A stretch of DNA of 64,000 bases. Source: Candidatus Improbicoccus devescovinae (GTDB taxonomy: Bacteria; Bacillota; Clostridia; Oscillospirales; Acutalibacteraceae). The position numbers and the translations under genes were made by a program. Of the stretch, positions 27,767 through 36,182 are shown in pieces; within the stretch, counting starts at the first letter, position 1; the number at the start of each line of letters is the position of its first letter. The notes beneath the pieces are model-generated. The model had not been told where the DNA came from and made no database searches. It was given only the letters and a program-made list of their open reading frames with translations. Location of the stretch: contig BSWA01000002.1 of NCBI GenBank assembly GCA_036245095.1, forward strand, positions 2,691 through 66,690, written 5' to 3'.

Positions 27767-29056
27767 ATGAGTTATATATTTTTAGCGGCGGTAGATTTTA
27801 TGAAATTTTTGAATAATAATATTAATAATATAAAAAAATCAATTATATTTAGTATTATTTTACTTAGTGGTATTATAGTATCGGTCAATTTTTTTATATG
27901 CAGAGAGATTCCGTCGGTATTTTATTCTGAAGAAAAAGCTGAGATAAATCTTGGCAATGTTTTTCAGATTTTACCTATAAAAATTGTTCCAAATTCGAAT
28001 TTAGACTCCGTAGAGGCGAATTCTAAATTTGACACGAAAAACAGTTATAAAGCAAATGTCACGTTATTTAATATTCCGTTAAAAAAAGTAACAGTACAAA
28101 TTTATGAAAGACCAAAAGTTTTTGTTTCTGGTATTCCGTATGTTATAAAAATATTTATGAATGGCGTAATGGTTGTAAATACAACATCAGTTTCGACTCA
28201 GAACGGCGAAATTAACCCTGCTCAAGAATGCGGCATAAAATCTGGAGATTTAATTACTCAAGCTAATGGGACTGCAATTAATACCAATGAAGATTTTGCG
28301 TACATGGTCGAGAATTGTTCTGGGATATTAAACTTAACAATCTCAAGAAAAAACTATTGTTTTCCTGTCAATTTATTTCCGGCTAAGACTTCTGATAACA
28401 AATACCGAGCCGGCCTATGGATAAGAGATAGCTCCGCCGGCATAGGAACTATGACATTTTTCGACAAAAATACGCATCAATTTGCTAGTTTAGGTCATGG
28501 CATACGAGACATTGACACCGAAGAACTCATACCTTTGGCGTATGGAGATATTCTAGAAGCTAAAATTAATTCAGTAATTAAGAGCGTGAACGGCCTAGCA
28601 GGCGAACTTCGTGGAAGCGTGAGTAATGACAAGCCAATCGGTGAACTCAAGCTGAATGACAATTCAGGAGTCTACGGGAATTATAATGAGACTGCAAATT
28701 CAACAAAACCGAATAATTTATCGGAAGTTGAGATTGCGTTCAAACAAGAGATTACAAGGGGCCCAGCTACTATGATTTCTACAATTAATGGTACTATACC
28801 TAAAAGTTATAATATAAACGTAGATGCCATAAAATTAAATAAATCGGATTCGACCAAAAACATCGTAATCAGTGTAACAGACGAAGAATTACTACAAAAC
28901 ACGGGAGGAATCGTCCAAGGGATGAGCGGGAGCCCTATAGTCCAAGGAAACAAACTTGTCGGAGCAGTGACTCATGTATGCGTCAACAATCCCGTGAAGG
29001 GCTATGGGATTTTAGCGGAAACTATGATGAAAAACTTACAAAGTACAAAAAAATGA
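27767..29056 (+). CDS. spoIVB: SpoIVB sporulation signalling serine peptidase (S55) with PDZ domain
   Basis: N-terminal TM segment, PDZ region (GIKSGDLITQANG), catalytic LGHGI and GMSGSPIV motifs. The start could be ATG 27800. Confidence 0.85.
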   Translation: MSYIFLAAVDFMKFLNNNINNIKKSIIFSIILLSGIIVSVNFFICREIPSVFYSEEKAEINLGNVFQILPIKIVPNSNLDSVEANSKFDTKNSYKANVTLFNIPLKKVTVQIYERPKVFVSGIPYVIKIFMNGVMVVNTTSVSTQNGEINPAQECGIKSGDLITQANGTAINTNEDFAYMVENCSGILNLTISRKNYCFPVNLFPAKTSDNKYRAGLWIRDSSAGIGTMTFFDKNTHQFASLGHGIRDIDTEELIPLAYGDILEAKINSVIKSVNGLAGELRGSVSNDKPIGELKLNDNSGVYGNYNETANSTKPNNLSEVEIAFKQEITRGPATMISTINGTIPKSYNINVDAIKLNKSDSTKNIVISVTDEELLQNTGGIVQGMSGSPIVQGNKLVGAVTHVCVNNPVKGYGILAETMMKNLQSTKK

Positions 29057-35349: not shown

Positions 35350-35378
35350 TTGACTTTGGCATATAATACTCACATAAT
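35350..35378 (+). promoter_or_regulatory. sigma-A-type promoter candidate for the 259-aa / 1378-aa gene pair
   Basis: TTGACT, 17 nt, CATAAT, 25 nt upstream of ATG 35403. Confidence 0.4.
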
Positions 35379-35402: not shown

Positions 35403-36182
35403 ATGTCGCTTTTAGGATCAATTGTTTCAAATTATAGAACCAGTGTATTATATGATTTTAGTTTAGTAGTTAAAGCCAATATATTTATATTGAAGGTAGT
35501 AGAAAAAGATGTAACCGATTTGTTTACTAAGGGGCCATTTGGTTGGAGCGTTAAAGAAGCATTACCATTGCAATTAAATCCAACAAGTATAAAGCGTAAT
35601 CGAGGTTCACAGATGAAATCCGCGGATGATAGTAAAAAAGGCTTAAGGTCGTTTGATGGTCCTGCTGTTACAACACCTGATAATTATGTATTACTGTTCC
35701 CCGATAGAGCCCAAAAAGCTGAGGATCTTGAATTGGACTTAACATTTGACATATATGATGAATATAATATGCGAACTATGAATGGCACTATTCCTCTTGA
35801 TATATCTTTAGCTGATCCAGATGTAGTGATTATTGAACACTTATTTTTATATGCAAATACGAATAACTACTGGGCATTATTCAAATGGGGCCCGTTAGTT
35901 TATTTTGGAAAAATTAGAAGAGTAAACTTTGAATATACTACATTTTCTGCTTATGGTGAACCATTAAAAGGCAAGGGAAGTCTTTCGATAGAAAAACAAT
36001 CCCTGGGAACGGACGATGATGGGACAGAGCTAGAACCAGGATTACGTACGTTGGGAGCAGTTCCGTGGGCGGAAATAACTGGTTACACGAAAGCTCAAAC
36101 AGCTTTAGTTGTAGGTATGCGCATAGCAGAAGAAGCAGCAGCATTAACAGTTCCGACAATTTTACGTACAATTGGGAATTAG
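35403..36182 (+). CDS. contractile-injection-system / phage tail tube-like protein (orphan)
   Basis: Motif string LQLNPTSIKRNRG ... LELDLTFDIYDEY ... DVVIIEHLF ... ALFKWGPLVYFGKIRRVNFEYTTFSAYGEPLKGKGSLSIEKQ. This resembles the F-x-F-N-P ... L-F-F-D ... F-x-W-G ... F-x-G ... F-T-x-F ... G-x-P-x-R-A pattern of CIS tube/tube-initiator domains. Confidence 0.45.
   Translation: MSLLGSIVSNYRTSVLYDFSLVVKANIFILKVVEKDVTDLFTKGPFGWSVKEALPLQLNPTSIKRNRGSQMKSADDSKKGLRSFDGPAVTTPDNYVLLFPDRAQKAEDLELDLTFDIYDEYNMRTMNGTIPLDISLADPDVVIIEHLFLYANTNNYWALFKWGPLVYFGKIRRVNFEYTTFSAYGEPLKGKGSLSIEKQSLGTDDDGTELEPGLRTLGAVPWAEITGYTKAQTALVVGMRIAEEAAALTVPTILRTIGN

Follow-up and report, generated by a model that had tools for sequence, protein, structure and literature searches.

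To our knowledge, the Improbicoccus-type symbionts of gut protists are the only known intracellular Bacillota. The paper that described the clade presents its members as endosymbionts of protists in termite guts and as putative energy parasites, and does not mention an injection system (PMC10579323). A 2025 preprint reported an extracellular contractile injection system (eCIS) of subtype IIb in MAG-71, a rumen-ciliate-associated metagenome-assembled genome (MAG) of the Acutalibacteraceae that clusters with the termite symbionts (bioRxiv 10.1101/2025.07.29.667580). Table S3 of this preprint gives Afp1/5, the sheath and Afp8, 9, 11, 12, 13, 14, 15 and 16, spread over several separate ranges of gene numbers; the entries for Afp6, Afp7 and Afp10 are blank (10.1101/2025.07.29.667580). 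Afp7 is among the eight subunits found in >85% of eCIS loci (PMC6899500). Since the method of the preprint demanded proximity to other system genes (10.1101/2025.07.29.667580), Afp7 was missed. Our analysis concerns a gene in a stretch of 64,000 nucleotides from 'Candidatus Improbicoccus devescovinae' (GenBank GCA_036245095.1, contig BSWA01000002.1, positions 2,691 to 66,690; the whole stretch is called the window). It encodes a 259-amino-acid (aa) protein, which is very probably the tube initiator, equivalent to Afp7, Pvc7, Alg7 and Cis7, of the subtype-IIb-like contractile injection system (CIS), lineage-specific and conserved, of this genome-reduced clade.

The eCIS of the clade is already published and the Pfam family of the protein is known; what is new is a LysM-less and constitutively off-cluster Cis7 that fills the Afp7 blank. 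Compared with the Afp7/Pvc7/Alg7/Cis7 initiators (PF19266; PDB 6rao_G, 6j0n_b, 7aeb_M, 9gtp_M, 9qgl_7A and 7b5h_AK), the family has a long C-terminal helix instead of LysM and an extra conserved N-terminal segment, and its gene lies outside the main cluster, paired with a giant variable open reading frame (ORF), and not between cis5 and cis8. The IIb eCIS of the preprint (MAG-71, 'Ca. Improbicoccus') belongs to the same clade and is the same system, with sheath, two tube-type genes, split Afp8, Afp9 and Afp11 at separate loci, but the module of Cis7 and giant is not described there. An eCIS search that relies on gene proximity thus overlooks a core part whose gene never lies in the cluster. 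The antifeeding prophage (AFP)-like system of Amoebophilus asiaticus (and Cardinium), also termed type VI secretion system (T6SS)-iv, likewise belongs to an intracellular symbiont with CIS genes at distant loci, and its off-cluster Afp7 and tape-measure genes are Aasi_565, Aasi_1079 and Aasi_1806 (Table S3, 10.1101/2025.07.29.667580). However, Amoebophilus belongs to a different phylum and its system to eCIS subtype Ib, its Afp7 retains LysM, and a conserved giant partner has not been reported.

The tube-initiator fold of the 259-aa protein

The 259-aa protein has the CIS tube fold of the Afp7/Pvc7 tube-initiator subtype, in agreement with an original prediction that had been made from the sequence alone. 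Its sole Pfam match is PF19266 (CIS_tube; residues 51-199, 26.9 bits, E 4.7e-6, with a Pfam cut-off of 27.0 bits). The score rises to 28.6 bits when the gene is read in frame in the genome, and PF19266 is matched by all 87 aligned family representatives (best E 5.9e-15). A profile of the family detects the Afp7-type PDB chains with an E of 6.4e-7. In structure comparison, Cis7-type chains score above tube subunits, and the beta-barrel superposes better on solved Cis7-type chains than on ordinary tube proteins. In the model, residues ~19-208 form the tube-fold beta-barrel and residues 219-249 one long C-terminal helix. The protein is not the major tube protein (gp19/Afp1/Hcp), since PF06841 matches two other genes of the genome and not this one.

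An exhaustive HMMER search recovered 100 clusters (50% identity) of the family at E <= 1e-3 and 79 at E <= 1e-10, almost all with 220-290 aa. None of the 87 family members matches LysM in Pfam. The four peptide stretches on which the prediction was built are all present in the order given and are conserved in alignments of 13 and 87 relatives. The motif columns (L54, P55, Q57, N59, P60; L113, D119, E120, Y121; L147; F160, W162, G163, Y178, F181, S182, G185, P187, L188) are invariant or near-invariant in both alignments. The invariant columns among the 13 relatives include those from L54 to L147 together with W162, G163, Y178, F181, S182, G185 and L188, and they are still >=90% conserved among the 87 representatives. 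A further invariant block near the N-terminus, YRTS..YDFS, had been absent from the earlier motif list. Within the genus, the identity of the protein is 34-46%.

By analogy with solved CIS baseplates, six copies of the protein would form a beta-barrel ring between the Cis5 ring above and the gp27-like hub with the gp5-like spike below, and would serve as the starting point for polymerisation of tube and sheath; hub and spike are here two separate proteins, gpD-like and gpV-like. The C-terminal LysM of Alg7 reaches out to the wedges. In the Improbicoccus protein, the ~30-residue C-terminal helix may take the place of LysM, presumably by contacting the wedges in an equivalent manner or by binding a partner protein.

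The Cis7 position in the main cluster and across genomes

Our comparison covered 41 genomes, namely the genome of the window (G000; 1.08 Mb in four contigs, C1-C4, 88.6% complete, MAG-grade) and its 40 nearest relatives. In G002 of the same genus and in G015 of a sister genus, the system is encoded by a single uninterrupted cluster in phage order: (290-aa protein,) sheath, tube, chaperone, D1, D2, gpD hub, gpV spike, gp25 and wedge, where D1 is a tube-domain protein and D2 the protein encoded directly upstream of the hub. In the closed genome of the congener 'Candidatus Improbicoccus pseudotrichonymphae' CfP3-15 (AP027924.1; G009), the cluster genes lie in two blocks, 17 kb apart. There is no PF19266 gene within the cluster of the sister genomes, and the ortholog of our gene is the only PF19266 match genome-wide in G000, G002, G004, G008, G009 and G015. 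In G009, ~510 kb separate it from the main cluster, and in G002, G008 and G015 it lies on another contig. For 20 family loci from named genomes we inspected up to 10 kb on each side where the contig allowed, and none of them carries a CIS gene within this distance. The canonical cis7 slot between cis5 and cis8 is not used, and the gene lies off-cluster in every genome examined.

Two cluster genes came into question as occupants of this slot. The best solved relatives of D1 are Afp5, Pvc5, Alg5 and All3324, and we therefore assign D1 to the Cis5 layer; with Afp5 and Pvc5 as best PDB matches and no profile similarity to the 259-aa family, D1 was rejected as Cis7. D2 was rejected as a hidden or degenerate Cis7, since hhalign gave a probability of 0.07% and a sole alignment of 8 residues. 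The canonical eCIS order would put cis7 directly after the position of D2. The C-terminus of D2, YRRGIL (L007:12073-14301), resembles the N-terminal YRTSVL(YDFS) of the 259-aa protein (window 35430-35460), with a non-significant E of 0.7 over the 8 residues aligned by hhalign; the likeness could be due to chance or be a trace of the former site of the gene. Because the clusters hold no PF19266 gene, the 259-aa ortholog is the sole PF19266 match and Afp7 is found in >85% of eCIS loci, the simplest reading is that this family is the Cis7 of the system.

The distribution of the family across genomes agrees with this. It occurs in 8 of the 9 congeners and one sister genus, an orthologous sheath (63-74% identity) in all 9 congeners and two sister small-genome genera, and gp25, with the same pattern, in 8 of the 9 congeners and one sister genus. 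Neither the family nor sheath nor gp25 was found among 29 searched relatives with genomes of 1.3-3.7 Mb. Five more distant genomes with the family (0.8-1.3 Mb) all have the orthologous sheath (65-71% identity), so that both occur together in 15 of 15 family-bearing genomes. Besides G009, the family-bearing genomes include MAGs from termite, ruminant, mouse and human guts, with the labels Oscillospiraceae, Clostridia or Eubacteriales. In two genomes, 93% and 70% complete, the sheath is present and no homolog of the 259-aa protein was detected.

Several points weigh against the assignment as Cis7. One of the two latter genomes is the congener G003 (93% complete), which possesses sheath and gp25. 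The genomes are close kin, and the complete co-occurrence is therefore a matter of consistency and not of statistics or independent evidence. Taken alone, the protein falls 0.1 bit short of the Pfam cut-off; the missing LysM and the constant position outside the cluster are two departures from canonical Afp7 traits. With an assembly that is 88.6% complete, a second Cis7 might lie in the unassembled part. Finally, that the protein forms a ring, and where this ring would sit, is suggested by homology.

The gpD-like (376 aa) and gpV-like (246 aa) proteins are separate ORFs, adjacent in G002 and G015, and a split of afp8 into gp27-like and gp5-like ORFs is a criterion of lineage IIb (PMC6899500). 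The split afp8 and the missing PAAR agree with lineage IIb as defined there. A search with PF14065 gave no match in the genome of the window nor in any control genome; for MAG-71, the AAA+ ATPase Afp15 and the terminator Afp16 are both given (10.1101/2025.07.29.667580).

A conserved gene pair with a variable giant partner

The Cis7-like gene and a giant ORF form a conserved two-gene module in which the giants of different species groups show no detectable homology. In 13 of the 20 loci, a giant ORF of 608-1222 aa follows directly after the Cis7-like gene, with a gap of ~10-40 bp (in one case 255 bp); five loci end before the position is readable, and two (G006, L059) carry something else. In the window, an ORF of 1378 aa begins 76 bp past the stop of the Cis7-like gene with no terminator between. 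Its product contains 24% Lys and Glu (K+E) and few Gly and Pro residues, and has no signal peptide, no transmembrane (TM) segment and no Pfam or PHROG domain; PHROGs gave no match for the 259-aa protein either. The giants share 17-37% K+E and charged N-termini, signal peptides and TM segments are absent, and no Pfam domain was found in any of 14 of them. They form four small homology groups and singletons, with no phmmer or hhalign link between groups and no common N- or C-terminal motif. The 1378-aa protein has no homolog in nine congeners or in a database of 5.8e9 proteins, and its BLASTP self-comparison, which would reveal internal duplication, gave no off-diagonal match at E <= 10; the ESM Atlas gave no usable match for this protein or for D2. 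By position, the giant ORF is conserved as the partner of the Cis7-like gene, and it is either extremely fast-evolving or repeatedly replaced.

In eCIS, cargo loading is attributed to leaders at the N-terminus and to the Afp15/Pvc15 ATPase. In the islands of hcp or vgrG with effectors that T6SS carry off-cluster, a tube- or spike-fold gene stands apart from the main cluster and is followed by a variable large ORF, a likeness to the module of Cis7 and giant that is functional only. It is possible, though doubtful, that the module likewise encodes carrier and cargo, the Cis7-like protein being a dedicated adaptor as well as, or rather than only, a structural ring, and the giant a host-directed effector loaded at the tube base and injected into the protist. 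The tight pairing, seen with gaps of ~10-76 bp in 14 of the 16 loci with enough downstream sequence, is in line with this. So is the lack of homology between the giants of different species groups even by profile comparison, with the window copy a singleton, a pattern typical of effectors whose turnover is driven by the host. All giants have charged, probably disordered N-termini and no signal peptides, as reported for payload leaders of the Photorhabdus virulence cassettes (PVC; PMC11495950), and the hosts are eukaryotic cells (PMC10579323). One congener has a weak RabGAP-TBC-like gene behind the module. On the other hand, none of the 14 giants contains a toxin, enzyme or eukaryote-like domain, a packaging motif common to the giants is missing, and no Afp15-type loading ATPase was found beside the module, though none was sought. 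Composition-driven divergence of a low-complexity structural protein would also give the same picture.

We speculate further, with somewhat less confidence, that the Cis7-like protein and the giant constitute an ancient adaptor-plus-payload cassette with mobile content, whose ring may dock an effector of 600-1400 aa, hypervariable and specific to the species, for firing into the protist. Every symbiont species would then have a payload of its own behind the conserved adaptor. If true, such a cassette would represent a cargo-selection principle not yet described for eCIS.

The genes around the module do not form a constant eukaryote-like set. This candidate feature was rejected because only one sub-threshold RabGAP-TBC match, the gene of congener G008 (L057:14765-15784; 20.9 bits against a cut-off of 25.2), and one sub-threshold Ntox11 match were found. 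In one family-bearing gut MAG (L055:422-1762), a gene for a TLC-type ATP/ADP transporter lies directly upstream of the module, in agreement with the proposal that the clade lives as energy parasites.

The original prediction had placed the 1378-aa protein in the position of a tape measure. It is a conserved positional partner, but the ruler role is doubtful for a singleton whose counterparts are non-homologous and variable in length. A tape measure co-translated with the initiator ring through which it threads is in line with a giant that is large, charged and probably helical, has no TM segments or domains, and is encoded next to a hub-proximal part. Lineage II eCIS generally lack recognisable afp14 homologs (PMC6899500), so that homology does not settle the ruler. 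We nevertheless consider this role unlikely for the giant, whose length within one genus varies between 803 and 1378 aa at ~70% identity of sheath and tube, and whose positional counterparts show no detectable homology. Furthermore, the gene of the tail-assembly chaperone is located in the main cluster or elsewhere, and not beside the Cis7-like gene.

D2 is likelier to be the tape measure than the 1378-aa giant, because it lies next to the hub gene, has retained homology across genera with the C-terminus best conserved, and covers a narrower length range than the giant. By position, D2 corresponds to the gene annotated as Afp14 (tape measure) in the preprint, next to the second tube-type gene. 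It has 742 aa in G000 and G002; other congeners have versions of 613, about 725-744 and 838 aa, and the sister genus one of 1473 aa. An exact constancy of D2 length as proof of the ruler role was upheld only in part, given 613-838 aa within the genus. In G009, two ORFs of 150 and 525 aa stand in place of an undivided D2 (L049:6604-8780; C1:766.6-768.8k), and D1 is a 197-aa tube domain only, without the A/E/K-rich tail of other species (355-578 aa); erosion or remodelling of inner-tube parts is possible in this genome.

The 1378-aa giant may thus be a payload or, with a smaller chance, a ruler, and would otherwise be another accessory or an unrelated protein. Its constant pairing with the Cis7-like gene makes the hypervariable ORF a concrete candidate for the payload or the ruler of lineage II systems.

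Dispersal of the system and surroundings in the window

The original prediction noted that no sheath, baseplate or spike genes lie near the Cis7-like gene. This is true for the window: profile searches of the genome located no sheath, tube, gp25, Baseplate_J or other CIS gene there, all genome-wide matches lie elsewhere, and the closest CIS gene is found ~150 kb past the window end. However, the remaining parts of the system are present in the same genome (Table 1). They were located by family searches and by tblastn with orthologs from sister genomes. The Pfam search for Baseplate_J overlooked the 732-aa wedge protein, whose gene was recovered by tblastn with the G009 ortholog, and absence calls from single-family searches are therefore weak here.

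Table 1. Genes of the injection system in the genome of the window, and features around the Cis7-like gene. Plain positions are those of the window; C1-C4 are contigs, and the CIS pieces outside the window carry the locus labels L005, L091, L007, L092 and L009.
Feature	Position	Strand	Basis or context
Small GTPase, Ras superfamily, 258 aa	29190-29966	-	Pfam
ORF, 263 aa	30051-30842	-	no Pfam domain
ORF, 808 aa	31168-33594	+	no Pfam domain
Promoter-like hexamers TTGACT-17-CATAAT, weak candidate	35350..35378	+	10/12 matches; in 137-bp gap after gatB
Cis7/Afp7-type gene (very probable tube initiator), LysM-less, 259 aa	35403..36182	+	ORF; PF19266
Gene of K/E-rich partner protein, 1378 aa	36259..40395	+	ORF, no Pfam domain
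Cu_amine_oxidN1 ('stalk') domain protein, 314 aa	40436-41380	+	Pfam; comes after 1378-aa gene
Conserved 290-aa protein, sheath (575 aa) and gp19-type tube (171 aa)	C1:448.7-451.9 kb		between spoIIIAH and pcrA/rnc/ftsY
Second wedge protein, Baseplate_J-type, 732 aa	C2:218.0-220.2 kb		between ftsW and pckA
Tail_P2_I-like protein (352 aa) and 706-aa protein	C2:about 223.7-227 kb
gpV-like OB-fold spike (246 aa), gp25 (132 aa) and 1009-aa wedge protein	C2:314.3-318.6 kb		beside PD-(D/E)XK transposase-family gene
Tail-assembly chaperone, 123 aa, alone	C3:21.1-21.5 kb		between pyrB and plsX
D1 (423-aa tube-domain protein), D2 (742 aa) and gpD-like hub (376 aa)	C4:18.8-23.4 kb		beside TnpW, serine recombinase and DDE transposase

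The CIS genes are thus distributed over seven or more loci within about 1.1 Mb, the gene pair of the window being the seventh, and every scattered CIS ORF is intact. The chaperone and one wedge gene stand singly, wedged among housekeeping genes, and two breakpoints of the set adjoin transposase or recombinase genes. This genome context suggests that the cluster was broken up by mobile-element-associated rearrangement, while selection keeps all parts. A multi-protein machine scattered over seven loci with every ORF intact argues for selection on it in a shrinking genome.

Due to the scattering of the main cluster, the gene appeared as an orphan within 64 kb, and the prediction had considered that it may be the sole remnant of a decayed tail-like particle, or a tube fold that had been put to a new use. 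Despite the absence of CIS genes from the window, the loss of LysM and the fast divergence within the genus, such a relic, or a recruitment outside the contraction machinery, is highly improbable, because the genes of sheath, tube, chaperone, Cis5, hub, spike, gp25 and wedge are intact at six or more other loci, sister clusters lack exactly this part, the sheath accompanies it in all 15 genomes with the family, its ORF is intact with motifs invariant across 87 representatives, and other hub parts diverge even faster (spike 25-27%, gpD 26-29%). The observation behind the prediction is real and its fold assignment right, "orphan" holds locally only, and a decayed relic or new function is not supported.

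The hexamers proposed as an own promoter of the Cis7-like gene are present, but such matches are barely enriched over background in this AT-rich DNA (42 in the region against 31 +/- 5 in shuffles), and they are therefore no evidence of a separate promoter.

Downstream, the genes are as described earlier: the 1378-aa protein is followed by the 314-aa stalk-domain protein, for which PHROGs gave no match, and a 1000-aa M16 peptidase (Pfam). The stalk-domain protein occupies the same position in G009 (268 aa, 31% identity) and was not found there in other species.

Sporulation-type genes are retained in the reduced genome, namely those of a SpoIVB peptidase, a SpoIIIAH-like protein and a Csp-type subtilase (window 27767-29056 (+); L005:4104-8331 (-)); the word "sporulation" is absent from the main text of the paper that describes the clade as intracellular symbionts (PMC10579323). 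Two ORFs of 808 and 263 aa lie between gatB and the gene of a small GTPase, ~5.4 kb upstream of the Cis7-like gene. This GTPase matches Pfam Ras with an E of 8.8e-10, as well as Arf and Roc. Among solved structures, eukaryotic Rab1A comes closest to it (E 4e-5, about 26 bits), and it is possibly a eukaryote-like protein in a protist symbiont.
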